From a virus (Duplodnaviria; Heunggongvirae; Uroviricota; Caudoviricetes), in IMG/VR virus record IMGVR_UViG_2778261177_000005: a stretch of 43,152 nt of DNA; one strand, 5' to 3'. Shown here in pieces: positions 3,041 through 42,744 of the stretch (position 1 is its first letter; the number at the start of each line of letters is the position of its first letter). The position numbers were made by a program, and so were the translations under genes. Below the pieces are notes generated by a model that saw only the letters and a list, made by a program, of their open reading frames with translations, had not been told where the DNA came from and ran no database searches.

Positions 3041-3720
3041 CAGAGTAATACTCCCCATGCCCCTACATCAAAACCACTGATGAATTCGTTATCCATATCA
3101 AAACCAAAAAATTTTGAACCTTCCGATGGGGTTTCCACCGAAGGTGTTTCAATGCCACCCGCCCACACACCGGCGGCTTTTACTGTGAGATATCCCTGTT
3201 TAATTGCAGCAATTAACTCACGCGATACATCTGAAATATCAGTATCAGGAAAGACCCAGACCGATATCGTCATGTCCTGGTTATCGACTATCTGCATTCG
3301 CAGTCCGGATCCTGCTGTTGCAGCGTCAAGAATTGCCGGAAGCGAATCATTCCGTCCGTCCCAGTTATTAATCGCAATCTTCGCTTTAAGAATGACACGA
3401 TAAGTTTCATCGCTGAGATACATGTATCCTGAATCAGGATCATATGGCCCCTGCCATACCCCCTGATCATACCCAAGCCCGTCGGTATCCCAGCTGAAAT
3501 AGACACCTGAGATAAGCTGGCTGACAACACGGCTACGTCCGATCCACAATCCCAGAATGTCAAGTTGCACACCAACCGCAGAGTCAATATCAAATGCAGT
3601 AATCAGCCCTCTGGTGGCAGCCGCAACATCAATAAGCGGCCGGGTCATCAGATCAACATGTGCAAGAAATTTAGGTTTGGTGGCGTGGTAGTTTGTGATT
3701 AGTTCGGTGTATTTGCTCAT
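3040..3720 (-). CDS. baseplate/tail protein, P2 gpI-like (YmfQ/DUF2313-like)
   Basis: 226 aa; ATGA overlap with upstream gene; sits between the gpJ-like and tail fibre genes as in P2-type baseplate modules. Confidence 0.55.
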   Translation of the reverse strand: MSKYTELITNYHATKPKFLAHVDLMTRPLIDVAAATRGLITAFDIDSAVGVQLDILGLWIGRSRVVSQLISGVYFSWDTDGLGYDQGVWQGPYDPDSGYMYLSDETYRVILKAKIAINNWDGRNDSLPAILDAATAGSGLRMQIVDNQDMTISVWVFPDTDISDVSRELIAAIKQGYLTVKAAGVWAGGIETPSVETPSEGSKFFGFDMDNEFISGFDVGAWGVLL

Positions 3721-22205: not shown

Positions 22206-22920
22206 TGAGGTCACGCTCTCCATTGCCATCATCAATACCTGCATCACGGCGAAGACGATCAGCCTCCAGAGACACCTTATCAGTGGCGGCCTTGCGGTAG
22301 GCTGTATCAGCAAATATTTTTCCTACCGTCGCAAGCGTGCCAACGATGGACTCAATACGAACTGTATTGCGCATCATTGCTTTCTCGGCGGCGCTGATAT
22401 TTTCCATCAGCATCTTCCTTTCCTGGTCCCCATTAGCATCTTCCAGCGACACCAGCCACCGACCGATATTCTCTGCAGCGACAAGGTTGTTAGCACGAAG
22501 GCGAAATAATTCGTCCTCGAGCGTCAACGCTTTAGCGTCCTCTATCACCTCATCTTTGAGCAGAAGGCGACGGGCATAACCACCGTGTTTTAATGCCTGT
22601 TGGTTACCGGGTTGGAATGGGTTAGTCGGGGGATCGGTACGCATTCCGCGTATCGGTTTCGTATCCAGTGTAGGTTCTGTTTTTAGTTGCGTACCTTTTT
22701 GTGTAAGGCCAGTAATGGCAGGCTTTCTGCTGGTACGCACTTTTCTTTTTTGCGTACCATTTTTGCAAACCTGCGTACCGCCACTGCGTACCCAACCAAG
22801 CTTTTTGGCCCTCTTCCTGATAGCCCCTTCTGTAACGCCGTATTTCTCGCCTATATCACGGAGGCTAAGGACTCCGGCCCGGTATGCCGATTCGATGGCC
22901 TCCCAGTCCGGTTTTGCCAT
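22171..22920 (-). CDS. terminase small subunit (HTH DNA-binding)
   Basis: 249 aa; N-terminal HTH GVLSLRDIGEKYGVTEGAIRKRAKK; RBS AAGAGG; immediately upstream of the large subunit. Confidence 0.6.
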   Translation of the reverse strand: MAKPDWEAIESAYRAGVLSLRDIGEKYGVTEGAIRKRAKKLGWVRSGGTQVCKNGTQKRKVRTSRKPAITGLTQKGTQLKTEPTLDTKPIRGMRTDPPTNPFQPGNQQALKHGGYARRLLLKDEVIEDAKALTLEDELFRLRANNLVAAENIGRWLVSLEDANGDQERKMLMENISAAEKAMMRNTVRIESIVGTLATVGKIFADTAYRKAATDKVSLEADRLRRDAGIDDGNGERDLNDFYSDIQTDA

Positions 22921-22977
22921 GAATTTTTCCTCTTAGTGACATTATCGAAGCCCCTTATCAAAGGAGCTTCTGTAATG

Positions 22978-23163
22978 TCAGTCCCGAACAAACGTAACCT
23001 TCGTGTTTGTCGCTCGCCTTACAAGGCGCGCCGCTTCGCGTTGCATTTCATCGATAACTTTTTGCGTCATCGGCTGATGCGCATATTTACGTTCAATCTC
23101 TGCAAAAATCCCGTTCATCGTTTCGCTGTCTGGTGGGATAACTTCAACGTTTAATCGTGCCAT
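22978..23163 (-). CDS. small hypothetical protein
   Basis: ORF 22978..23190 (TTG start); ATG at 23163 gives 61 aa; weak RBS; between the spanins and terS. Confidence 0.3.
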   Translation of the reverse strand: MARLNVEVIPPDSETMNGIFAEIERKYAHQPMTQKVIDEMQREAARLVRRATNTKVTFVRD

Positions 23164-23422
23164 TGGTTTGTGCTGCCCTGTTTTTCTCAAAAGTCCTGAT
23201 ATCGGCCTTATCCCTGTTGCACTGTGCTAACGCTGACAACAACGCAACATTCAGGTTAAGGCTGGCTCCCCACGTAAACGGGTCGGGTAAATCTGGCTGG
23301 GGTGTTTCATCCGTCAGACTGGCTGGTAACGGAACGACCGGCACCGACACGTATACCGTTCGCGTATTCGTGCAACCGCTTAACTGCGCCAGAAGGAACG
23401 ATACGAACAGCACAATCATCAT
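23144..23422 (-). CDS. o-spanin (Rz1-like outer-membrane lipoprotein)
   Basis: Lipoprotein signal MMIVLFVSFLLAQLSG-C then Pro-rich VPVVPLPASLTDETPQPDLPDP; overlaps the 3' part of the Rz-like gene in another frame. Confidence 0.6.
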   Translation of the reverse strand: MMIVLFVSFLLAQLSGCTNTRTVYVSVPVVPLPASLTDETPQPDLPDPFTWGASLNLNVALLSALAQCNRDKADIRTFEKNRAAQTNGTIKR

Positions 23423-23699
23423 CCGCAACAGCCACTTTGATATCTTCCTGGGTTCTCTGTGACTCCAGTGCGATCTGCTGTTTTGCATGCTGGTTAGCCT
23501 CTATAACTGTATTGATGATTTGCAGTGATTGCAGGACGTTACTGGTAATGGCTGTTGCAGATTCAGCATTTCGTACAGCCTCATCAGCACGCTCCTTTTC
23601 GTGTTGATATTTGCTGTAGTAATGCCCGGCAGACCAGATAAAAGAACCGATGACGGTAACAAAGAAGGCAACAATAACCAGCTTATATCTCAGCTTCAT
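23307..23699 (-). CDS. i-spanin (Rz-like)
   Basis: 130 aa; N-terminal TM helix (LVIVAFFVTVIGSFIW) then coiled-coil-like region; downstream of the endolysin with embedded Rz1-like frame. Confidence 0.65.
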   Translation of the reverse strand: MKLRYKLVIVAFFVTVIGSFIWSAGHYYSKYQHEKERADEAVRNAESATAITSNVLQSLQIINTVIEANQHAKQQIALESQRTQEDIKVAVADDDCAVRIVPSGAVKRLHEYANGIRVGAGRSVTSQSDG

Positions 23700-24159
23700 T
23701 TACCACCCCACCAGCTTCTTTAAATCGGGAAATCAGGTCACCGATTCTATGTTCATACTGACCGTAACCTGCACCAGGTAACGACGCCCAGATATTGCTG
23801 CAACGGTCGATTGCCTGACGAATATCGCCGCGGTCAATCATCGGTAAAGCGCCACGCTCTTTAATCTGCTGCAGCGCTACAGCATCCTGGCTTTCTGGAG
23901 AAAAATCTTTCAGACCAAGTTGCTTGCGGTAGGCATCCCACCAGCGTGAAAGAAGCTGGTAACGTCCGGCGGCTGTTGATTTGAGTTTCGGATTTAGCGT
24001 GACAAGTTTGCGGGGGTGATCGGAGTAATCAGTGAACAGTTCGCCACCGACAATAACATCATAACCGTGATTTCTGGTTTTCTGCCGCCCGTTATCTGTT
24101 CCTTCTGACCATGCCACCATATCAAGGAAAGCTTTACGCTGAGAATTAAGTGTCTGCAT
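23683..24159 (-). CDS. R: endolysin, lambda R-type lytic transglycosylase
   Basis: 158 aa, MQTLNSQRKAFLDMVAWSEGTDNGRQKTRNHGYDVIVGG...; near-identical in my recollection to phage lambda R. Confidence 0.85.
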   Translation of the reverse strand: MQTLNSQRKAFLDMVAWSEGTDNGRQKTRNHGYDVIVGGELFTDYSDHPRKLVTLNPKLKSTAAGRYQLLSRWWDAYRKQLGLKDFSPESQDAVALQQIKERGALPMIDRGDIRQAIDRCSNIWASLPGAGYGQYEHRIGDLISRFKEAGGVVNEAEI

Positions 24160-24162
24160 TAA

Positions 24163-24498
24163 TTACTCCTTATGGGCACCGAACTTGTTACCGATGACCC
24201 TCATTGCCGCACCACGAATAGCATCAACACCAATCAGCCCCACCCCACCACCAATGGCAACAGAAAGTGATTTAGGCCATCCGACATACTCAAGCGCGGA
24301 TGCAAAGGTCAGCGTCAGGGCACCACAGAGCAAAATCTCAAGCGTTTTTCGTTTCCAGCCCCCACCACCGCCAAAATAGGCGATGCGCAAACCAGCCATA
24401 ACGATCGACATAATCACTGCACCCAGCGGTGTGTCTCCACGCCACCAGCTCTGAAACAACTCCAGCCAGTCCGGCCAGGTATTTGGGTTATGAGGCAT
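24163..24498 (-). CDS. holin
   Basis: ORF 24163..24522; ATG at 24498 (MPHNPNTW...); two or three hydrophobic segments and a charged C-terminus; immediately upstream of the endolysin. Confidence 0.55.
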   Translation of the reverse strand: MPHNPNTWPDWLELFQSWWRGDTPLGAVIMSIVMAGLRIAYFGGGGGWKRKTLEILLCGALTLTFASALEYVGWPKSLSVAIGGGVGLIGVDAIRGAAMRVIGNKFGAHKE

Positions 24499-24620
24499 TT
24501 CATCATCTCTCACCTCGCACATATCGCGGGTGCAAATTGAGGGAATAAAAAATCCCCGAATATTCCAGGAGCGGAAACGGGGAAAGGCGTTGCACTAAAT
24601 GGGCCTGTCTGCGGCCTTAA

Positions 24621-24650
24621 ATAAAAAACCCCGGCAAATGCCGAGGTCAG
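24621..24650 (-). terminator. intrinsic terminator upstream of the lysis cassette
   Basis: Minus strand CCUCGG-CAUUUG-CCGGGG followed by UUUUUUAUUU. Confidence 0.55.
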
Positions 24651-24873
24651 TTAATCGTTGCCGCTGTTAGTGCCGCGGTGCACTATCTCTTTATCAGGCT
24701 ACTTACGCGTTAAACCGGGTGCCAACCGTAACTCAGTGATGCTTTACGCTTCCTCTCCCTCACTACGTCGCCATGGGAGCCCGACCAGATTAACGCTGTC
24801 GTCACGTTGCCAATATATGGCATCCAATGCATTCTTTTTATTTAGCTATTTCATTTTTCTATCCGTCAGAAAC

Positions 24874-24896
24874 AACAAAACCCGCTCAATGGCGGG
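24874..24896 (-). terminator. intrinsic terminator about 100 nt downstream of the ORF6N-like gene
   Basis: Minus strand AACCCGC-CAUUGA-GCGGGUU followed by UUGUUGUUUCU. Confidence 0.5.
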
Positions 24897-24993
24897 TTCT
24901 GGTAAAGTTCATGCGCTTGGTTCGCCTCGCGATACAGCTTTGCGAAGCGTACCGGAATTGAAGCAGTTTATGGCTAAAATTGCAAGAACTTTT

Positions 24994-25575
24994 TTAAAGC
25001 TGCATCAGCCTTTCCACCAGTTTATCTCTGCGAACAACAAACCAACCATTGGCTCTCGCCAGTTCCAGCCATGACTCAAGGGAAATAACAATATCATCAT
25101 CCCGCAACTGAATTGTGGAAACAGTGACACCGCCTCGCTGATAACAGAGAACTCGCGTGTCGTAACTTTTCTGGCATGAAGCTGGCGCTGACGGATCCTT
25201 TTGTCTGAAATAGCAGTCTTCCAGCTTTTCGAACACATCCCACGCCTGATCGGTTTCGAGCATTTTGGCATGACGGGCTGCTCCGCGTTCTGTCCAGAGG
25301 ATGAGGGAGCGGGCTTTCGGGGAAATTTGTAACCCTCTTAAAGATGGTTGCAAATTTTGTGAGTAGTTTAAAGCTACCCGCAATTCTTTAAGGTCATTAC
25401 CAACAACTTTGAAAAAGTGTTTCCCTTCAACGAAGCGTACTTTGTTCTCATGATGATTCTGGCGAATGCGCACCGGCTCAGTGCCGTAAAGCTGCGCCAA
25501 AAGTTCGGTGGTAATAACAGGAATCTGGTTATGGGTGATCGGGGAGAGAGTTTCAACAGAAATTTGAGTTGTCAT
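24994..25575 (-). CDS. ORF6N-domain (antirepressor-like) protein, first gene downstream of PR'/tR'
   Basis: 193 aa; N-terminal ...IPVITTELLAQLYGTE...KHFFKVVGNDLKEL...LWTERGAARHAKMLETDQAWDVFEKLEDCYF resembles the ORF6N domain as I recall it; RBS GAGGG. Confidence 0.5.
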   Translation of the reverse strand: MTTQISVETLSPITHNQIPVITTELLAQLYGTEPVRIRQNHHENKVRFVEGKHFFKVVGNDLKELRVALNYSQNLQPSLRGLQISPKARSLILWTERGAARHAKMLETDQAWDVFEKLEDCYFRQKDPSAPASCQKSYDTRVLCYQRGGVTVSTIQLRDDDIVISLESWLELARANGWFVVRRDKLVERLMQL

Positions 25576-25732
25576 AATGACGCCCTCTGGTGGTTTCTTA
25601 ATAACTCACCACCGACGACGCCAATCATCTGGTGGTGAACTGTGCAGGGTTGGCGTAACCGGGAAACCGACCGGCGCGGATCTCTCCGCCCCCACACAGC
25701 CCACCATAATTCAGATGTGCGCGTGCATGCGA

Positions 25733-25758
25733 CAATAAAAAACACGCTCGCGGCGTGT
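25733..25758 (-). terminator. tR'-like terminator of the short late leader transcript
   Basis: Minus strand ACACGC-CGCGA-GCGUGU followed by UUUUUUAUU, about 55-80 nt downstream of the PR'-like promoter. Confidence 0.6.
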
Positions 25759-25819
25759 ATCTGTCGCGGTCTCTATCCAGGACGCCAATCCCGACGCCAG
25801 ATTTTGCTGGCGCGTGAGG

Positions 25820-25849
25820 AATATAGCCCCGGATAACAGATTGAGTCAA
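25820..25849 (-). promoter_or_regulatory. PR'-like late promoter (sigma70 -35 TTGACT / 18 bp / -10 TATATT)
   Basis: Minus strand ttgactcaatctgttatccggggctatatt; the -35 overlaps the Q-like stop codon, the classic lambdoid position. Confidence 0.65.
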
Positions 25850-26400
25850 CAGACGGTTTTTAGATCCCCGGAAGAGAATGCATCACGCATCGGCAGATAG
25901 AGCATAAACTCTGCCATTTTCAACCACGCATCTATGCGATTACGGCACGTGGCGTAACACCACTCAGGGTGTGAATCATTCAGCAATTCAGCCATTTTGC
26001 GCTTAGTCATCCCCCTCCCTTCATATCGTTGCCGGAGGATACAAATCAATCCTGGGTGTTCTGCCAGCACTTCACTAATCACCCGATCAATGCATAACGC
26101 CTCTGCATCAGTACAATGTACCAGCCAGCTTTTTTGCTTGCCGTTGATCATATCCCGCAAAAAAGCCTCAAGTTCAGGTTTGTCCAGACCTGCTTTTTTC
26201 ATCCTCCGGAGCGCCTCATTAATTGCCGTTTTTGTCAGCTTTTTAGAGGTCAGCAACTGGTTAAACATATTTCCCGTCTTACCGCCGCCAATATACGACC
26301 AGCGCCCCCACATGCGCAGTTTTCCCTGAATCCAGACACTTTCCAGCGTGGTGAGACGAAGGTGTTCCCCGCTTTTGCCTGTATTTGTTGGGTAAATCAT
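25846..26400 (-). CDS. putative late antiterminator Q
   Basis: ORF 25846..26520; ATG at 26400 overlaps the upstream stop (ATGA); called from position (last nin-region gene, directly upstream of PR'/tR' and lysis genes). Confidence 0.5.
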   Translation of the reverse strand: MIYPTNTGKSGEHLRLTTLESVWIQGKLRMWGRWSYIGGGKTGNMFNQLLTSKKLTKTAINEALRRMKKAGLDKPELEAFLRDMINGKQKSWLVHCTDAEALCIDRVISEVLAEHPGLICILRQRYEGRGMTKRKMAELLNDSHPEWCYATCRNRIDAWLKMAEFMLYLPMRDAFSSGDLKTVC

Positions 26401-26687
26401 AAATAACCTTCCTTTCTCCAGATTTCTTGTGTGCGAAAAACACCTTCTGCATGCATCAGGCGTAATTCTTCTTTGGTGTAATCGCTGTTTTTTACCCGCC
26501 CGTCGATTAAATCGTGGCATGAGCTACAGGCAATCGCTGCCTGCATATCGTGTGGTTTTGTCGCTGTTCCGCACGTCCCCGCCAGCCTGTAATGCGCCAG
26601 CACAGAAGTTTCGGGATTGTGATTGCAGTAGCCAGGAATTCTGACGGTGCACATCTGCCCCCGCGCCGCTTTACGTAAATCCACCAT
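26397..26687 (-). CDS. YbcO-like (DUF1364) putative nuclease, Cys/His-rich
   Basis: 96 aa, MVDLRKAARGQMCTVRIPGYCNHNPETSVLAH...IACSSCHD; resembles DLP12 YbcO as I recall it; nin-region position. Confidence 0.55.
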   Translation of the reverse strand: MVDLRKAARGQMCTVRIPGYCNHNPETSVLAHYRLAGTCGTATKPHDMQAAIACSSCHDLIDGRVKNSDYTKEELRLMHAEGVFRTQEIWRKEGYL

Positions 26688-27286
26688 TACGCAAACTCCA
26701 GTAACTGTGCGGCCACATTTTCGACTTCCTCCGGAGAGGAAAATTTACGGAACAGGATCCAGTTCCACAGCACATTCAGTACAGATTTATAAACCTGCTG
26801 AAACTCGGTTTCGTCCATGTTCGCAAATGCGATAGATTTTGCCCTGCGCCCACGACTACCATCAGGATAAATATGCTCGGTGTAAAATCCGGCCTGAATG
26901 GTTACCCACTCGCGGAAAGCCTCAAACGACTTTAGCAATGCCGTATCCCGGGTTCTGCGTGTCGCAACTGTATTCAGATATTGCTCTGCGGCTTCGCTCA
27001 GAGCTGGCGTATGTTCCCGACCTACTGATTCGCACAGGTACTCAACGAAGCCTGATACCAGTTCTCGTTCTCGAGGCGTGATCACCCCACCGCTTGGAGT
27101 CCAGTAATCGAATCCCAGTTGCAGGAGTTTGAAAAAACGCTTGTGAAATGCGTAGTTACGCACACGCTTAAAGTCTGCGTGTATCCACTCACCTATTTTG
27201 ATTTGATGCAAAAAATCGCAACTCTCCGGCGTCGCCGGGAGAAGTAATCCGGAAGAGGTTTGTTTGACCAGTTGTATATGCGCCAT
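26687..27286 (-). CDS. hypothetical nin-region protein
   Basis: 199 aa; RBS GGAG 7 nt upstream of ATG; family not recognised with confidence. Confidence 0.5.
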   Translation of the reverse strand: MAHIQLVKQTSSGLLLPATPESCDFLHQIKIGEWIHADFKRVRNYAFHKRFFKLLQLGFDYWTPSGGVITPRERELVSGFVEYLCESVGREHTPALSEAAEQYLNTVATRRTRDTALLKSFEAFREWVTIQAGFYTEHIYPDGSRGRRAKSIAFANMDETEFQQVYKSVLNVLWNWILFRKFSSPEEVENVAAQLLEFA

Positions 27287-27357
27287 CGTAGTTCTCCGCT
27301 GGCGCAGTAGAATGGGTGTTCAGCCCGTTATGTAGTATAACAGAATTAATGCCAATA

Positions 27358-27609
27358 CTAACAGGATGCTCTGACTCGCAATTCATCCAGCAGTTTATCA
27401 TTTCCCATAATGTCACTTACCCTCATCGGTAAAAAAATTGCCTTTCGACCATTACGATACATCATTGATTTTGGGATTTCAGGGAAGTAATCCATTTCGA
27501 CTATAACTGACAGGTCATCACGACGTATGACTGCGTATTTGCAACTAAATAGTTTCTTTATTTTTTCCACGATGCCTCCGAGTTTATAAGTACAAACGGT
27601 TATATCCAC
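27358..27609 (-). CDS. small hypothetical ORF in AT-rich island
   Basis: 83-codon ORF beginning with GTG; internal GTG with GGAGG RBS would give 70 aa; very AT-rich; may not be expressed. Confidence 0.25.
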   Translation of the reverse strand: MDITVCTYKLGGIVEKIKKLFSCKYAVIRRDDLSVIVEMDYFPEIPKSMMYRNGRKAIFLPMRVSDIMGNDKLLDELRVRASC

Positions 27610-27845: not shown

Positions 27846-28001
27846 TTACTCCTCAGGTTCGTAAGCTGTGAAGACAGCGACCTCCGTCTGGCCGGTTCGG
27901 ATTCGTACCTCGCAGAGGTCTTTCCTCGTTACCAGTGCCGTCACTATGACGGTAATACAGATGACGATCAGGGCGACTAACATCGCCTTTTGCTGCTTCA
28001 T
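27846..28001 (-). CDS. hok: Hok/Gef-family type I toxin (HokD/RelF-like)
   Basis: 51 aa MKQQKAMLVALIVICITVIVTALVTRKDLCEVRIRTGQTEVAVFTAYEPEE; single TM helix then conserved Cys; RBS AAGGAG; in-frame upstream extension in ORF 27846..28058 in the mok position. Confidence 0.85.
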   Translation of the reverse strand: MKQQKAMLVALIVICITVIVTALVTRKDLCEVRIRTGQTEVAVFTAYEPEE

Positions 28002-28292
28002 AGCCTGCTTCTCCTTGCCTTTCGGCACGTAAGAGGCTAACCTAGATTTGCCGTTCATAGATTGAGCCTCAGATTAATGTTAAGCGTCTTGCAGGACGCG
28101 TAATGTTAACTGGGGCTCTTCTCTATCTGCCTTTTGGTGTTCATGCCCGAGGCAGATAGCCTCAAGCACCCGCAGCAATTTTACTTAACTCCCCTTTTCA
28201 CGCAAACCGTTTTTATCCCCAGCGGCAAATCGAATACACCACCAGCGCCACCGCCATCGCAATTCCTACCGTTGTGAATGCTTCAGGCCAGG

Positions 28293-33266: not shown

Positions 33267-33689
33267 TCAATGCACTACGACAGAATCACCGGGCGACCCA
33301 CCACCGCTGAAATGTGCTTTCCGGTAAACGGCCTGGACTGCATCATCATGCGCATCAATTGCCGTACTCAACGCTTCCTGCGCCGCCAGTAATGCACGGC
33401 GTTCCAGGGTATCGAAGATGCAGAGTCGGTGACGCAGCTCGCGCGGAAGAATTGCCAGAACCGCAGGGATCAGTGTCTGAATTTTTTCCCTTTGCGCTTT
33501 CGTTTCACCTTTTAACCAACGGTGATAGATGTTCTGCTGATTATTCCAGTCCTTGCCTGGTACCAGGGGCAATTCGCCGCCCCCCTGGCGCAGATATTCT
33601 TCAGTAATTGCATTGGCTACCCACGCCTGCCCTTTTTCGGCTGCCAGGGCTAACAACACTGATTCGATGTGCTCATGCCTGATTTTCAT
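33267..33689 (-). CDS. YdaT-like protein (Rac-type early regulator/toxin family)
   Basis: 140 aa; ATGA overlap with the cro-like gene; length and sequence resemble Rac YdaT as I recall it. Confidence 0.5.
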   Translation of the reverse strand: MKIRHEHIESVLLALAAEKGQAWVANAITEEYLRQGGGELPLVPGKDWNNQQNIYHRWLKGETKAQREKIQTLIPAVLAILPRELRHRLCIFDTLERRALLAAQEALSTAIDAHDDAVQAVYRKAHFSGGGSPGDSVVVH

Positions 33690-33928
33690 GAATCAACCGC
33701 TCCTATGCTGTTTTCGCTATGCTTACCGTCTGGGGGGAATACATCGTCAAGTCCACAATGAGCGCCAAGCCGATTAAGGGTAGAAACAATTTTTCTGCAC
33801 TCCTCTAGTCCAGGGGTACGAAAATTTGCTTCGTAATTTGCCAGTCGGCTTTGTATCCACCCTAACTGAACAGCAAGTTGTCTTTGAGACAGCCCAAGCT
33901 GTTTTCGATATGTTGAAATTTTGTTCAT
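33686..33928 (-). CDS. Cro/YdaS-like HTH regulator
   Basis: 80 aa; HTH YRKQLGLSQRQLAVQLGWIQSRLANYE; strong RBS GGAGG; divergent from the repressor gene. Confidence 0.7.
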   Translation of the reverse strand: MNKISTYRKQLGLSQRQLAVQLGWIQSRLANYEANFRTPGLEECRKIVSTLNRLGAHCGLDDVFPPDGKHSENSIGAVDS

Positions 33929-34024: not shown

Positions 34025-34444
34025 ATGGAAAAAGAAAACGAAAAAATTGCCGCTAGTAGGCTCAATGACAAAATTGCAATGCGTCTTAAAGAGCGCAGGC
34101 AGAAGCTTGGTTTATCTCAAGGAAAACTTGCTGAAATCTGCGGATGGACGCAATCGCGTATAGGTAACTATGAGGCGGGCAGCAGAAATGTTGGAGTGCA
34201 TGACGCTGTCGTATTGGGAAAGGCACTTGGCATATCTCCTCCTGAGCTCCTCTTTGGAGAACAGGAATCTTCTGAATTGTGGTTAAATGAATCCCAACGA
34301 AAACTTCTTGAGTTGTTTAACCAGCTACCGGGCTCAGAACAACAACGAATGATTGAGCTATTTGAAGTCCGGCTAAAAGAAATCGATGAGTATGTAGAAA
34401 AATATTTGAGAGGCAGGCTTAAAGATAATCCCCCACCGGAGTAA
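34025..34444 (+). CDS. prophage repressor, HTH XRE-family (RacR/CI-like, no peptidase domain)
   Basis: 139 aa; HTH RQKLGLSQGKLAEICGWTQSRIGNYEAG; RBS AAGGA; divergent from the cro-like gene; followed by a terminator. Confidence 0.75.
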   Translation: MEKENEKIAASRLNDKIAMRLKERRQKLGLSQGKLAEICGWTQSRIGNYEAGSRNVGVHDAVVLGKALGISPPELLFGEQESSELWLNESQRKLLELFNQLPGSEQQRMIELFEVRLKEIDEYVEKYLRGRLKDNPPPE

Positions 34445-36357: not shown

Positions 36358-39300
36358 ATGAGCACCGATAAACAAGTTTACCCACTGTATTACGAAGCAA
36401 AAAATGACAAAGTAAGAAAACGTCTCGGTATTAAAGGCGGTTTCTACTGGGCTGAAGCGAAAAAATTATCCATTGCCATCTCCCGTGGTGCTGTTGCGAT
36501 TGACGATGCTGGCTACGATGAAGATGACTTTAAAAAACCTGTTCGCGTCAATTTGCCCGTTGTTGATGACCTTCCACCAGAAGGCGTATTTGATACGGAA
36601 TTCTGCAACCGTTACGAAAAAGGCGGGGAAGATGGCATCACAATGGTATTTATCGCGCCCTCATCCTCTGCGCAGGACAAACCAGCCAGCACTGACAATA
36701 CCAATGTTAATGGCGAAGACATGACGGAGATTGAGGAGAATATGCTACTCCCGATTTCCGGTCAGGAGCTGCCCATTCGCTGGCTTGCTCAACACGGCAG
36801 CGAAAAACCGGTAACGCACGTTTCACGCGACGAACTACAGGCATTACACATTGCACGAGCTGAAGAACTACCAGCTGTTACTGCCCTGGCTGTTTCCCAC
36901 AAAACCAGCCTGCTCGACCCGCTGGAAATTCGCGATCTCCACAAACTGGTGCGTGATACTGACAGAGTTTTCCCTAATCCAGGCAATTCAAGCCTGGGGC
37001 TGATGACTGCTTTTTTCGAAGCATACCTGGACGCAGACTACACCGATCGCGGTCTGCTGACAAAAGAGTGGATGAAAGGAAATCGTGTTTCATGCATCAC
37101 GCGCACGGCTTCCGGCGCTAATGCTGGCGGCGGGAACCTCACCGATCGCGGCGAAGGTTTCGTTCACGATCTGACGTCACTGGCGCGCGACGTAGCGACT
37201 GGCGTACTGGCTCGTTCAATGGACGTGGACATTTATAACCTTCATCCGGCACACGCTAAACGTGTCGAGGAAATTATCGCTGAAAATAAACCGCCCTTTT
37301 CTGTTTTCCGCGACAAATTCATCACCATGCCTGGCGGGCTGGATTATTCCCGCGCCATCGTGGTTGCGTCCGTAAAAGAAGCACCAATTGGGATCGAGGT
37401 TATCCCCGCACACGTCACTGAATATCTTAACAAAGTTCTGACTGAAACTGATCATGCCAACCCTGATCCAGAAATCGTGGATATTGCCTGCGGTCGTTCC
37501 TCTGCCCCGATGCCGCAGCGTGTAACAGAAGAAGAAAAACAGGATGATGAAGAAAAACTGCAACCATCTTGCGCAATGGCAGATGAACAGGCAACGGCTG
37601 AAACAGTGGAACCGGATGCAACTGAACATCATCAGGACACGCAGCCGCTGGATGCTCAGTCACAGGTAAATTCTGTTGATGCGAAATATCAGAAACTGCG
37701 GGCAGAACTCTATGAAGCCCGGAAAAACATTCCGCCCAAAAATCCTGTCGATGCAGACAAATTACTGGCTGCCTCTCGCGGAGAATTTGTTGAAGGGATT
37801 AGCGACCCGAATGATCCGAAATGGGTTAAGGGGATCCAGACCCGCGATTCTGTGTACCAGAATCAGCCAGAAACGGAACAGAACGACCCAAATACGCAAC
37901 AAAACGAGCCAGAAACGAAACAGCCTGAGCCAGTAGTGCAACAACAGGAAACGGAGAAAGTTTGCACCGCCTGCGGTAAGGCTGGCGGCGGCAACTGTCC
38001 TGACTGTGGCGCGGTGATGGGCGACGCAACGTATCAGAAAACCTTTAATGAAGAAAATCAGAATGAATATCAGGAAAAAGGTCTGGAGGAAATGGAAGGT
38101 GCTGAACATCCGCACAAGGAGAACGCTGGCAGCAATCCGCATTGCGATTGCAGTGATGAAGCTGGTGAAACGACAGCACCTGTAGTAACTGAAATCATGT
38201 GGCCGTCATATTTCGAGCCTGGCCGCTATGAAAACCTCCCGAACGAGGTTTATCACTCCGCCAACGGAATAAGCAGCACAATGCTGAAGGATGCCCGCAT
38301 CAGCCTGATGTATTACCACGGACGGCACATTGCCGGAACTATTCCGGGCGAGGAAAGTGATGCATTGCTGCGTGGGCGGATTATTCACAGTTATGTTCTG
38401 GAAACGGATAAATTCGCTGATGAGTATGCCATTCCGGTACCGGTTCCTGAATATGTGGTTACTACTTCTAACGAACTGATCGCCATCATTAAAAAACACA
38501 ATGCCAGTCTGCCAGCACTGATGACACCAGAGCAGATGAAAGAGTGGATCGAAAGCTACAACAGCACTCTTATACAGCCACTGTCGGTAAGTGCCGGGGC
38601 CGAAGAAACAGGCATCCTTTACGGTTCGCTTCCGGAGGAATTCCGGCGTATTCCTGAGGGGGAAAAACACACAGCATCAGCAATGAAAGCCTGTATTAAA
38701 GAATACAACGCAAGCCTCCCTCCTCTGCTGAAAGCCAGTGGAACACGAGAGCAGCTCCTGGAGCAAATTGAAACTGTAGATCCAGAACTGGCAAAAAAAG
38801 AACGTGCTAAATCTTTGCCTTACAACATCAGTGGCACAAAAGAGCAATTAACCGAAATCGCCCGGAAAATTCGCCCGGAACTGGTAACACTGGAGGACTG
38901 GCAAAAACGCCAGCAAGAAGAACACGCCGGGAAAACGTTTATCAGTCCGGATATGTATGAACAGGCAAAAAATATTCACGCAGCACTGCAAAACAATACT
39001 GATGCAGCAAGGCTACTCAACCACCCGGATCGCAAATCTGAAATCAGCTATTTCGGGTTTGATGAAGAAACCGGGCTGGAAATCAGGGTCCGTCCTGATA
39101 TCGAAATCCGGCTGCCATACGAAAGCATTTGCGCCGACGTGAAGTCAGTCAGCCTCGGTTATGTGCGACAGGAACGACTGAAAGATCGCCTGCACCGTGA
39201 AATTATTGAACGTGATTATCACCTCAGCGCAGCAATGTATTGCGATGTGGCAAACCTGGACAAATTTTTCTGGATCTTCGTCAACAAAGATGCTGGCTAT

Positions 39301-39486
39301 CACTGGGTGGCCGTCGTGGAAGCCTCGCAGGAACTCCTGGAACTTGGTCGACAGGAATATCGCCGGACACTACGACAGATAAACGAAGCTCTGGAGACAA
39401 ACAACTGGCCAGCACCGATTACCGAAAGTTATACCGACGAATTAAACGACTTTGATCTTCGTCGTCTTGAAGCACTGAGCATCTGA
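36358..39486 (+). CDS. exodeoxyribonuclease VIII-like recombination exonuclease (RecE-like), enlarged
   Basis: 1042 aa; central region (...[40 protein letters not shown]...) resembles Rac RecE as I recall it; zinc-ribbon [16 protein letters not shown]; divergent N- and C-terminal parts. Confidence 0.7.
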
Positions 39487-40613: not shown

Positions 40614-40808
40614 ATGCGGTATGAAAAAGTCAAACCATGTCCGTTTTGTGGTTGTCCATCAGTAACGGTGAAAGCCATTTCAGGATATTATCGCGCAAAG
40701 TGTAACGGATGCGAATCCCGAACCGGCTATAGTGGAAGTGAAAAAGAAGCACTCGAAAGATGGAATAAACGAACTACTGGAAATAATAATGGAGGTGTTC
40801 ATGTATAA
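40614..40808 (+). CDS. Lar-family restriction alleviation protein (RalR-like)
   Basis: ORF 40599..40808; ATG at 40614 gives 64 aa with CPFCG...CNGC zinc-ribbon; position after recT as in Rac. Confidence 0.55.
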   Translation: MRYEKVKPCPFCGCPSVTVKAISGYYRAKCNGCESRTGYSGSEKEALERWNKRTTGNNNGGVHV

Positions 40809-40989
40809 AATTACTGCCACTATTGAAAAGGAAGGTGGCACTCCTACTAACTGGACAAGATATTCAAAATCTAAATTAACGAAATCAGAATGCGAAAAAA
40901 TGCTCTCAGGGAAAAAAGAAGCAGGCGTGTCCAGAGAGCAGAAAGTAAAGCTGATAAATTTTAATTGCGAGAAACTTCTGTCCTCGTGA
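40801..40989 (+). CDS. small hypothetical protein
   Basis: ORF 40732..40989; ATG at 40801 has RBS GGAGG; 62 aa. Confidence 0.4.
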   Translation: MYKITATIEKEGGTPTNWTRYSKSKLTKSECEKMLSGKKEAGVSREQKVKLINFNCEKLLSS

Positions 40990-41095: not shown

Positions 41096-41377
41096 ATGAA
41101 TCTTGTGACACTCAAAACGTGGGGAAAACTCAGATATCCGGATAACCCACCATCAATATCAACGCTGAGACGATGGGCAAGGAATGGAAACATTTATCCT
41201 GCACCTGAACTACACGGGAGGAGTTACAGGGTGGTTCCGGAGGCTTTCTATATCAACCCAAATAAGGTTGATACCGATATAACACACCATCAGCCTAATG
41301 GGCGACAAGGGAGAGACAGTCCGTTACTGGAGAAATTAAAACATGCAGCGGAAAAAATACGATCCCAATTTGCCTAA
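41096..41377 (+). CDS. xis: excisionase (Xis)
   Basis: ORF 41090..41377; second ATG (41096) has better spacing to RBS AAGAGGT; 93 aa; immediately upstream of and overlapping int. Confidence 0.7.
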   Translation: MNLVTLKTWGKLRYPDNPPSISTLRRWARNGNIYPAPELHGRSYRVVPEAFYINPNKVDTDITHHQPNGRQGRDSPLLEKLKHAAEKIRSQFA

Positions 41378-42419
41378 AAACTTAACATATCGAAGGAGGG
41401 ACAAAGCATATTACTGGCGCAACCCTCTGACGAAAGAAGAATTTACACTAGGTAAAATTTCAAGAAGAGATGCAGTAGCGCAGGCAATTGAAGCAAATCA
41501 TTATATATACAAAAACTACTCTCCTGCTGCCTTAATTGAAAAGCTTAAAGGGTTCGACTCATTTACTATGGCAGACTGGATTGAACGTTACAAAACGATT
41601 CTTATAAGGAGAAAAGTGTCCAGAAATACTTATAAAATCCGGGTAAATCAACTGGAGACAATAAAAGAAAAATTGGGAGAGATTTTACTGACAGAAATAA
41701 CCACTCGCCATATTGCCGAATTTCTTGATTTGTGGATTGAAGGAGGGAAAAACACAATGGCAGGATCAATGCGTTCTGTGTTGTCTGATATGTTTCGCGA
41801 GGCCATTGTTGAAGGACGTATATCTCAAAATCCAGTAACGCCAACAAGAGCACCGAAAATAGTAGTTACAAGAGAACGACTGAAACTAAAGACATACAAC
41901 TGCATCAGGGAGGCAGCAGATCAACTTCCGGCATGGTTCCCATTAGCTATGGATTTAGCCCTTGTAACAGGACAACGTCGCGAAGACATAACGAATATGC
42001 GGTTCAGTGATATTTATGATGATCGTCTCCACATCAGGCAAATTAAGACAGGAATGATGATTGCTATCCCCCTGTCACTCAGCCTTCCTGTCGCTGGTCT
42101 ACGGCTTGGTACAGTAGTTGAACGGTGCCGCCTGGTAAGCCGGGGAGATTATCTAATCAGTGCCGGGATTAGAAAAAACAGCCCTGACGGCAGCATTCAC
42201 CCGGATGGCCTGACAAAAAAATTTGTCGCAGCCAGAAAATTAACAGGTATCCAGTTCAGTGAAAACCCACCAACTTTTCACGAGATCAGAAGCCTGGCTG
42301 GACGATTGTACAAAGAAACATGTGGAGAAGAATTTGCTCAGCGTCTACTTGGCCACACATCGGAGAAGACAACAAAAATGTATCTTGATGAGAGAGAAAA
42401 AACGTACTTACTGCTCTGA
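41343..42419 (+). CDS. int: tyrosine integrase (lambda Int family)
   Basis: 358 aa; C-terminal catalytic region with ...[11 protein letters not shown]... and ...[13 protein letters not shown]...; xis-int overlap; adjacent to attR. Confidence 0.9.
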
Positions 42420-42549
42420 TTTTAACGTAAATGGATTGTTAAATGTATTTTGGTTGTGATATAACCAAAAAAGACCGGAATACAGAAATTCGAGTAAATT
42501 TCGGGGAATTTCGGGGAGACGCTTGCAACTGATTGATTTTAAATACAAT

Positions 42550-42581
42550 TAAAAAAAGACCGAATACGATTCCTGTATTCG
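42550..42581. repeat. attR: right copy of the 32-bp direct repeat (taaaaaaagaccgaatacgattcctgtattcgg)
   Basis: Matches 1067..1098 with 3 mismatches; forms the 3' terminator hairpin of sdsR. Confidence 0.7.
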
Positions 42582-42653
42582 GTCCAGGGAAATGGCTCTT
42601 GGGAGAGAGCCGTGCGCTAAAAGTTGGCATTAATGCAGGCTTAGTTGCCTTGC
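42551..42653 (-). ncRNA. sdsR: SdsR (RyeB) small RNA
   Basis: Minus strand reads GCAAGGCAACUAAGCCUGCAUUAAUGCCAACUUUUAGCGCACGGCUCUCUCCCAAGAGCCAUUUCCCUGGACCGAAUACAGGAAUCGUAUUCGGUC + U-tract, which matches my recollection of E. coli SdsR; terminator stem CCGAAUAC/GUAUUCGG. Confidence 0.8.
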
Positions 42654-42744
42654 TCTTTAAGAATAGATGACGACGCCAGGTTTTCCAGTTTGCGTGCAAA
42701 ATGGTCAATAAAAAGCGTGGTGGTCATCAGCTTAAATGTTAAAA

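Follow-up and report, generated by a model that had tools for sequence, protein, structure and literature searches.

A probable P1 immI-type antirepressor cassette between the Q gene and the candidate late promoter of a lambdoid Escherichia coli prophage

Introduction

In the immI region of the plasmid prophages P1 and P7, an antirepressor gene is controlled by the c4 RNA, in the order a1/b1, c4, a2/b2, icd, ant, a mechanism reportedly described by Citron and Schuster in 1990; the Rfam models RF01695 and RF03163 derive from these two phages. The locus considered here lies in a lambdoid prophage, within a 43,152-nt viral sequence (Caudoviricetes; IMG/VR record IMGVR_UViG_2778261177_000005) which as a whole is called the window; its coordinates are used throughout, and features are on the minus strand unless marked (+). 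Between a Q-type antiterminator gene and a holin gene, the window contains a gene for a 193-aa ORF6N protein, here called ant (25575..24994), preceded by a promoter and two small RNA elements. Probably, these together form a self-contained mobile antirepressor cassette of the P1 immI type, the E. coli counterpart of isrK-orf45-anrP in the Salmonella prophage Gifsy-1, placed between the Q stop codon and a conserved unit that is linked to Q.

Gifsy-1 is the closest described system. Its record has the order Q, isrK, C4, anrP, isrJ, tRNA-Arg, isrI, gogA, holin. Transcription of anrP starts at the promoter PisrK and reads through the IsrK terminator, and the long RNA so made, ~910 nt and ending at the IsrJ terminator, is untranslated; IsrK in trans activates translation through an upstream ORF (PMC4825925). 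AnrP expression raises the level of early-operon/antQ mRNA and induces Gifsy-1 (Hershko-Shalev et al., 2016, PMC4825925). Compensatory mutants were made at G28/C162 and G31/C159, and processed STnc1160 was likened to P4 CI, with P1 immI not mentioned (PMC4825925). Rfam, for its part, assigns the STnc1160 element to c4, and in the Rfam/P1 naming the mutated positions are the b1 and b' sites.

A related antirepressor is found in Shiga toxin (Stx) phages. In Phi24B, pR' reporter expression during induction changes when Ant is knocked out, and Fogg et al. (2011, PMC3064807) proposed a role for Ant in making induction efficient.

RNA elements and their pairing sites

The cassette's own promoter, PisrK, is a sigma-70 sequence (TTGACT-18-TATATT, 25849..25820); it is the sole promoter-like match in a scan of 22500..27500, and is placed to start IsrK at 25813. 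The IsrK small RNA (sRNA) homolog (25813..25737) matches RF01394 over its full length (1-77) with 75.5 bits (gathering score 50). The same segment is the a1/b1 decoy for c4, recognized by RF03163 (c4-a1b1, "a1, b1 targets of c4") at 25826..25774 with 50.5 bits (gathering score 46.7). Its intrinsic terminator (25758..25742; -8.1 kcal/mol, z -1.75) is weak, and partial read-through therefore fits. Downstream is a c4-type antisense RNA, STnc1160 in Salmonella (25711..25628; RF01695, 66.7 bits, gathering score 45), and then the ant leader. The three Rfam elements have the same order and spacing in Gifsy-1, the Stx phage VT2-Sakai, and phage pPE4.

Three short sites within these RNAs could pair. 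Site b1 (GAUUGGCGUC, 25790..25781) is inside IsrK; b' (ACGCCAAC, 25656..25649) is in an unpaired bulge of c4; and b2 (25626..25617), in the ant leader, is the same sequence as b1 and complementary to b'. They were compared in 16 distinct segments reaching from the promoter to the ant AUG, taken from IMG/VR relatives, VT2-Sakai, Gifsy-1, and pPE4. The sites co-vary three-way and fall into four sequence types: type 1 (b1/b2 GAUUGGCGUC, b' ACGCCAAC) in the window, Sakai, and Gifsy-1; type 2 (b1/b2 GAUUAGCACC, b' GUGCUAAC) in loci L004, L006, and L035; type 3 (b1/b2 GAUUGGAACC, b' GUUCCAAC) in the L008 group; and type 4 (b1/b2 GAUUAGGAACC, b' GUUCCUAAC) in the L015 and L031 group, with a 1-nt insertion matched at all three sites. 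The c4 fold, as computed with RNAalifold from 8 distinct variants, has 27 consensus pairs, of which 8 are doubly compensated and none broken. That both the fold and the b sites are kept by compensatory change argues that the RNA part of the cassette is under selection. Whole-RNA duplex predictions for c4 with IsrK or the leader gave long, non-specific duplexes and were discarded, so that the argument for pairing rests on the covarying b sites.

The cassette might instead be a decaying remnant without present function in this prophage, as would be compatible with an upstream ORF uncoupled from ant (there is no AUGA overlap) and an empty cargo slot alongside. We consider this very improbable: compensatory changes among the variants preserve stems and target sites, all three RNA elements exceed curated thresholds, and the intact ant ORF has hundreds of database clusters at 88-99% identity.

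Between c4 and ant, in the position of Gifsy-1 orf45, is an upstream ORF of 33 codons (25707..25606) whose conserved AUG is in the 5' arm of c4 and whose TGA (25608..25606) is 30 nt ahead of the ant AUG. Across the 16 variants the AUG is kept, but the length ranges from 27 to at least 47 codons and the reading frame varies; the frame that could make an AUGA overlap has no conserved start codon. The leader peptide thus shows no conservation at the protein level, and coupling probably works differently in its details. Possibly, coupling occurs by ribosomes unfolding a GGUGGU...ACCACC hairpin. An 18-codon ORF from an AUG at 25628 was rejected as the coupled leader, this codon being ACG in Sakai and in 8 IMG/VR loci.

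The antirepressor-type protein

Ant has an ORF6N domain at residues 12-105 (Pfam PF10543, E 1.1e-19; 71 bits, cut-off 27.8; covering positions 3-86 of the 86-position model) and matches PHROG 2379, "anti-repressor," over its whole length (7e-94). Its gene has a Shine-Dalgarno sequence, GAGGG, at 25587..25583. By tblastn, it is 54.9% identical to Gifsy-1 STM2616, which is anrP, over query residues 1-190 of 193 (98% coverage, E 2e-53), and its N-terminal domain is ~92% identical to that of the Ant of Stx phages. The family is a large one, with >5000 database clusters.

The protein is a composite, with the ORF6N N-domain (aa 12-105) followed by an AnrP-type C-domain of ~65 aa. The former is well conserved and is swapped among phages as a mosaic block, while the latter exists as an E. 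coli type and a Salmonella (AnrP) type with only scattered residues in common (alignment A4). Among 31 cassette-bearing loci with the window's Q family, C-domain DNA is 97-100% identical, and the RNA region plus N-domain only 73-100%, which points to a recombination joint close to codon 125. The C-terminal 70 aa, used as the sole query of a database search, retrieved only fragments of the same protein.

Comparison with Gifsy-1 and P1/P7

The window and Gifsy-1 share one order: Q, PisrK, a 77-nt IsrK with a weak terminator, a c4-like RNA (STnc1160), an ORF6N protein, and a short unit consisting of a promoter and a terminator. They also share the b1:b' sequence type, and Ant and AnrP are homologous over their full length (55% identity). 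Given this homology and the matching RNA order, the locus matches antQ-isrK-orf45-anrP-isrJ of Gifsy-1, and by its sequence it is an E. coli member of the Gifsy-1 system, which is itself built like P1/P7 immI. The two differ in several respects. The Q of the window belongs to the DUF1133 family and that of Gifsy-1 to the 82 type; the unit after ant is unrelated in sequence to that of Gifsy-1, with no isrJ match in the window (none in the 470-bp region behind ant at E up to 1); the upstream ORF has 33 codons and stops 30 nt short, vs. 45 codons and an AUGA overlap in Gifsy-1; the Ant C-domain is only weakly similar to that of AnrP; and no tRNA or virulence cargo is found behind the cassette, unlike in Gifsy-1.

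The likeness to P1/P7 immI lies in the c4 and upstream a1/b1 elements, recognized by RF01695 and RF03163; in the copy of the target downstream of c4, in the leader of the antirepressor gene; and in the sequence types, which differ by matched changes in c4 and target, as P1 does from P7. The window has no icd-like conserved leader protein, however, and no recognized a2 site, and the host element is a lambdoid prophage rather than a plasmid prophage.

Mobility and occurrence of the cassette

A block of 632 bp (25836..25205), comprising the RNA elements and the N-domain, is 97-98% identical to DNA of Stx1 and Stx2 phages. The shared DNA, with VT2-Sakai orf34-ant and Phi24B Ant as examples, includes the promoter, IsrK, c4, the leader, and the first 125 codons. 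In both the window and the Stx phages the cassette is within the rightward early transcription unit, but in VT2-Sakai it is flanked by a ninE-like gene and roi in the nin region, ~2 kb upstream of a different Q gene, whereas that of the window directly follows Q. The C-terminal domains differ as well: Stx phages have the same N-domain joined to a P22-Ant-like C-domain in a 244-aa protein, vs. the AnrP-like C-domain of the window.

Alignment A2 shows the promoter elements TTGAC and TATATT, with the 18-nt spacing, conserved in VT2-Sakai, where they are in the nin region, in Gifsy-1, and in pPE4 as well as in the window. These represent three contexts (the nin region, an 82-type Q, and a DUF1133 Q), and the promoter therefore belongs to the cassette. 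The pPE4 record (L004, PP818812.1, "Actinobacillus phage vB_Apl-pPE4") is ~89% identical over 1.7 kb to the E. coli prophage region and has the same Q, cassette, and hok; its stated host, Actinobacillus pleuropneumoniae, looks doubtful.

Of 5426 complete E. coli genomes, 926 (~17%) have the RNA module, at 1278 places in all and up to four per genome; the full Q-to-holin arrangement of the window occurs in 48 genomes. The cassette is thus an ordinary, abundant element of a known type, and the modest new point is its position relative to the late promoter pR'.

Position relative to Q and the late promoter

The Q-type gene upstream of the cassette (26400..25846, 184 aa) is assigned to the DUF1133 family by Pfam (6.3e-108), with a weak Phage_antitermQ match (3.2e-06) and a match to PHROG 753, "anti-termination protein Q-like" (2e-81). 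The TGA that ends the gene (25848..25846) is within the -35 hexamer of PisrK. On the other side of the cassette, directly after the ant stop codon, is a 129-bp unit (24995..24867) that is 93% identical to the DNA directly behind the Q stop in vB_EcoS-666R9, a cassette-less phage with a Q of the same family. Among the 80 IMG/VR loci closest in this Q family, 79 have the unit; L009, the 80th, lies on a contig that stops short of it. Thirty-one carry the cassette between Q and the unit. In the other 49, which have neither cassette nor PisrK-type promoter, the unit begins at the Q stop or at most ~25 nt from it, with the TGA inside TTGATT. Because the unit abuts Q in cassette-less loci and follows ant in the others, the cassette was probably inserted between the Q stop and pR', in which case ant is not a cargo gene of the late operon.

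The unit itself likely contains pR' and its terminator tR'. The candidate promoter (24985..24957) has TTGCAA (24985..24980), a 17-nt spacer, and an extended -10, TGcTTCAAT (24965..24957), and the conserved portion of the unit is a promoter-like TTGNNN-17-TGcTTCAAT sequence plus the first ~45 nt downstream. The predicted short transcript, ~80 nt from a putative start point (24950..24868), would end at the candidate tR', a hairpin with a U tract (24901..24876; -16.1 kcal/mol, z -4.6). Its first ~45 nt (GCUUCGCAAAGCUGUAUCGCGAGGCG) hardly vary within the Q family, whereas another hairpin replaces this one in ~25 loci; constant promoter and proximal sequence with an exchangeable terminator fit a Q-utilization site followed by tR'.

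The 82-type Q family shows a parallel arrangement. The IsrJ unit is at the Q stop in 45 cassette-less loci, and in 32 others the cassette comes first and the unit follows anrP. In Gifsy-1 the unit has TTGCAA-17-TATATT and then a conserved start, AUGUAAAUCUGAUAUCGUCGCC. It overlaps the 82-type Q stop also in phages CobraSix, ST11-VIM1phi8.1, and PhiR47_2. IsrJ is at 3560-3680 in the Gifsy-1 locus (L005), and homologous DNA is at ~1500-1610 in L086, L087, and L088. IsrJ has its own mapped 74-nt transcript (PMC2330248), and its placement suggests that this is the short pR' transcript of Gifsy-1, parallel to StxS. In the literature searched we found no paper that links IsrJ to a late promoter, and a search for the sequence string of a published phage 82 pR' found nothing.

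The unit at 24985..24868 and the Gifsy-1 IsrJ unit share their anatomy with lambda 6S RNA and StxS (Sy et al., 2020, PMC7547250). In each, a promoter that looks constitutive is located where Q ends and gives a ~75-80-nt RNA that stops at a strong terminator, with cargo and lysis genes beyond. There is no sequence similarity between 6S RNA or StxS and the window unit, which has no Rfam family and is known as sequence only.

These results bear on the preliminary description of the locus, in which PisrK (25849..25820) was the Q-dependent pR', the IsrK terminator was tR', and the ORF6N gene stood first in the late operon, its product being made in bulk only after Q acts. In favor of this reading, the promoter is right at the Q stop codon, as pR' is in lambda-type phages, a short terminated RNA follows it, and Sy et al. 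(2020, PMC7547250) described IsrK in passing as made from an antitermination-regulated promoter, implying the same for Gifsy-1. The Gifsy-1 read-through RNA from PisrK, on the other hand, stops at the IsrJ terminator without entering the late genes (PMC4825925). The same promoter and RNA, moreover, are found ~2 kb upstream of a different Q in the Stx nin region and behind an unrelated 82-type Q in Gifsy-1, and the 49 relatives that lack a PisrK-type promoter have the 24995..24867 unit at the Q stop. Q proteins need a specific binding site at their own promoter. We therefore judge it unlikely that PisrK is pR'.

Several statements of that description accordingly need correction. Its tR' hairpin (25758..25742) is the terminator of an isrK homolog (RF01394, 75.5 bits against a gathering score of 50), and the 270 bp from Q to the ORF are no plain late leader, holding isrK/c4-a1b1 and the c4 antisense RNA. 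The comparison of Q-to-holin regions across relatives that it called for shows the Q-linked element following ant, and abutting Q where the cassette is absent; the gene had been placed between tR' and holin, in the moron slot, but the sole non-coding element seen across the Q family lies downstream of it, and by this comparison it does not qualify as a moron. Nor does it appear to be the first late gene, the promoter ahead of it traveling with the cassette and the element that travels with the Q family coming after. As for the arrangement being odd, it is present in those 926 of 5426 complete E. coli genomes and is described in Gifsy-1.

The Q C-terminus also differs with the cassette: it ends in ...MRDAFSSGDLKTVC (184 aa) where the cassette is present and in ...MRESFAQKIA (180 aa) where it is not (25846..25880 vs. 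L003 2110-2143), so that the insertion joint appears to be in the last codons of Q. Both forms have their stop TGA within the TTGA of a -35 hexamer. In loci L217-L219 and L224, an additional 0.8-2.4 kb separates Q from the cassette, and in L204, L205, and L207, which have an E. coli-type Ant, a DUF1133 Q was not detected upstream.

Repressor and possible target of Ant

The prophage repressor is a 139-aa DicA-like protein (34025..34444 (+)) with an HTH_3 domain only (Pfam, 4.7e-13); a Pfam search found no peptidase (S24 self-cleavage) domain in it, and its match to the NCBIfam DicA subfamily is below the cut-off for that model. Next to it is a gene for a Cro-like HTH protein (33928..33686), and next to that one for a YdaT-like protein (33689..33267), an immunity region of the DicA/RacR kind. 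There is no LexA box (CTGT-N8-ACAG) anywhere in the 43-kb window, and SOS control of the cassette was dropped from consideration on this ground. With no cleavage domain in the repressor and no LexA box, an antirepressor would be needed for induction. DicA-type repressors are relieved by a prophage antirepressor, as shown for DicA and Rem (10.1101/2023.04.14.536235), and the Gifsy phages likewise depend on an antirepressor for induction (PMC4825925). The RNA-gated antirepressor is the most plausible way in which this prophage is induced, and we infer the 139-aa repressor to be the target of Ant.

The co-occurrence of Ant and repressor types was examined in IMG/VR loci L169-L230 with 10-kb flanks. 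A single type of Ant C-domain (93-100% identity) accompanies a window-type repressor (99-100% identical) in ~20 loci and repressors only 61-64% identical in four (L169, L170, L192, and L227); it is also present in L179, L181, and L215, where the repressor is at most 30% identical or undetected and there is only a distant YdaT homolog. The antirepressor thus goes with Q and pR' and not with immunity type. Either Ant has a broad range, or its target is something else. P22 Ant has a broad range.

The second of these leads to a different view of the locus, in which Ant is not the antirepressor of this prophage; its KilA-N-like ORF6N domain would bind DNA or a regulator of another phage or the host, with a role in cross-prophage induction, superinfection exclusion, or host takeover, and the RNAs would merely restrain a toxic product. 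Besides the loose tie between C-domain and repressor type, several observations are in keeping with this: the best, non-significant Foldseek matches of Ant are to DNA-binding domains (Ski/Dachshund and Mbp1 APSES); Gifsy antirepressors are known to act on other prophages (PMC3121763); and the RNA module, 97-98% identical to that of Stx phages, is present in up to four copies per genome. PADLOC also gives PDC-S05 matches, but they are weak (E 4e-05, ~21 bits) and confined to the shared N-domain, and a reading of Ant as a defense system was dropped. Against such a role, AnrP, the sole tested full-length homolog, induces its own prophage, and a resident repressor without a self-cleavage domain, with no LexA box found, leaves some antirepressor needed. 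We consider it improbable that Ant serves something other than its own prophage's induction.

Proposed mechanism

If the cassette is an antirepressor module of the P1 immI type, as we believe probable, it may work as follows. PisrK would fire without Q, most transcripts stopping at the IsrK terminator to give the 77-nt IsrK, as was found in Gifsy-1. Read-through would produce an RNA containing c4, the leader, and ant and ending at 24901..24876; with a span of 25813..~24870, or ~940 nt, it would be close to the ~910 nt measured in Gifsy-1. This long RNA would be silent, the c4 segment, or processed c4 acting in trans, pairing through b' with b2 of the leader and so locking the upstream ORF and the ant ribosome-binding region; the pairing is supported here by covariation, and its direction of effect is suggested by P1 and Gifsy-1. 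Free IsrK would titrate b' through b1, upon which the leader would open, the upstream ORF be translated, and Ant be made, a step for which Gifsy-1 provides the compensatory mutants at the b1:b' positions. Ant would then, by analogy with AnrP, inactivate the HTH-only, non-cleavable repressor, turning on the early operon and Q. Finally, Q would act on RNA polymerase starting from ~24985..24957, and carry it through the terminators at 24901..24876 and 24648..24627 into the lysis genes, as the comparative linkage suggests. On this reading, ant would come last in the early-right transcription unit and have its own promoter, rather than being the first late gene.

Several observations weigh against this scheme. 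At the RNA level, no a2 site was found in the 16 aligned variants, and there is no a1:a' covariation, the a1 loop being invariant and both c4 hairpin loops varying without matching change; we therefore claim only the b interaction. The b2 site does not overlap an obvious ribosome-binding site. It is predicted to pair with the ant Shine-Dalgarno region, and if this hairpin forms, c4 binding to b2 could open the ant ribosome-binding site instead of closing it, so that the sign of the b':b2 interaction is uncertain. The AUGA overlap with ant is absent here and was seen only in Gifsy-1. At the promoter level, the -10 of the candidate pR' (TTCAAT) is poor but for the TG ahead of it, the consensus promoter scan did not call this promoter, and in two cassette-bearing 82-type loci (L119 and L121) the IsrJ unit was not seen within 2.9 kb. 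At the protein level, a strictly cognate Ant-repressor pair is unsupported by the co-occurrence results, with at least seven deviating loci; a sequence search of PDB with Ant found no solved structure, and Foldseek no structural relative there below E 0.1. The AlphaFold (AF2) model of Ant is usable for the N-domain (pLDDT 75-87), but of low confidence for the C-domain (~50), which is left without a structural relative. Transcript ends, Q responsiveness, and Ant activity, lastly, are points that we infer.

Flanking genes and other features

Upstream of Q are a DUF1367 gene (27286..26687) and a YbcO gene (26687..26397). Downstream, the first recognizable late gene encodes a lambda-family holin S (24522..24163; Pfam Phage_holin_3_1, 3.3e-27), whose start is placed 24 nt later in the PGAP annotation of the near-identical (99%) E. 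coli AH19B041 prophage (L002), and is followed by a lysozyme gene (24159..23683). Much of the factual content of the preliminary description holds here. The 193-aa ORF6N gene is between a Q-type gene and a holin, as Pfam and PHROG matches confirm. The profile search that it proposed finds the ORF6N domain (71 bits, E 1.1e-19), and the assignment to an antirepressor-type family agrees with the full-length homology to AnrP and the ~92% identity of the N-domain to Stx-phage Ant. Hairpin energies and z-scores support two strong intrinsic terminators where it placed them. The stretch of ~470 bp before holin that it called gene-free (24993..24523, 471 bp) has no credible ORF and is unannotated by PGAP in near-identical E. 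coli genomes. ARAGORN found no tRNA in the whole window, and the absence of a tRNA or toxin gene at the locus is likewise borne out.

Part of this stretch, downstream of the candidate tR', is a cargo (moron) slot (24866..~24661), which is empty here, with no credible ORF. Homology with L003 and L004 ends at 24867, where those loci have a 189-aa ORF. This slot sequence is rare, with 36 of 5426 E. coli genomes containing it, almost always unannotated, and a 40-aa ORF within it (24832..24710) has no Shine-Dalgarno sequence and no PADLOC family match. The second strong intrinsic terminator (24648..24627; -15.4 kcal/mol, z -4.0) is in a leader that travels with holin; the last 110-140 nt before holin are common to loci with different slot contents (L011 and L039). 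A further hairpin at 24570..24554 was rejected as a third terminator, being no better than shuffled sequence (z 0.06).

Two toxin-antitoxin RNA systems are encoded elsewhere in the window. One is hok/sok (27846..28171), with an Rfam sok match of 106.7 bits and a hok-type ORF of 70 aa; the other is marked by RalA (40807..40985; 222.8 bits), which is the RalR antitoxin found also in the Rac prophage. A 1042-aa ORF in the early-left region (36358..39486 (+)) is followed by one of 350 aa; from their position near ralR/ralA, these may be recE/recT-like. The host sRNA pair SraC/RyeA and SdsR/RyeB (42547..42691) is just past a lambda-type integrase gene (41343..42419 (+)), and probably marks the prophage end and integration site.

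Implications

What is added here to the known systems is the location that the cassette has in two Q families, with Q on one side and the Q-linked unit on the other; the view of IsrJ as the Gifsy-1 late-promoter transcript; and the four covarying b-site types. IsrJ is a Salmonella sRNA with a reported role in invasion, and its placement suggests that it is the short late-promoter transcript of Gifsy-1. For annotation, the gene in the window would be part of an abundant regulatory module, and not an stx-like cargo of the late operon.

More tentatively, and as a possibility we would not yet favor, the cassette may act as an induction switch that is portable and addressed by RNA, and that in two unrelated Q families has come to occupy the site after the Q stop and before the pR' -35, with three consequences. 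IsrK would not be the late-promoter transcript previously assumed; the true short pR' transcripts would be IsrJ in Gifsy-1 and the ~80-nt RNA 24950..24868 in the window; and the b1/b'/b2 types, at least four in number, would amount to RNA-level immunity classes. Prophages of one type, such as this one, Sakai-type Stx phages, and Gifsy-1, could then activate one another's antirepressors by way of IsrK or silence them by way of c4. As a hypothesis, such RNA cross-talk between prophages might extend to the induction of Shiga toxin phages, which a harmless Rac-like prophage could tune.

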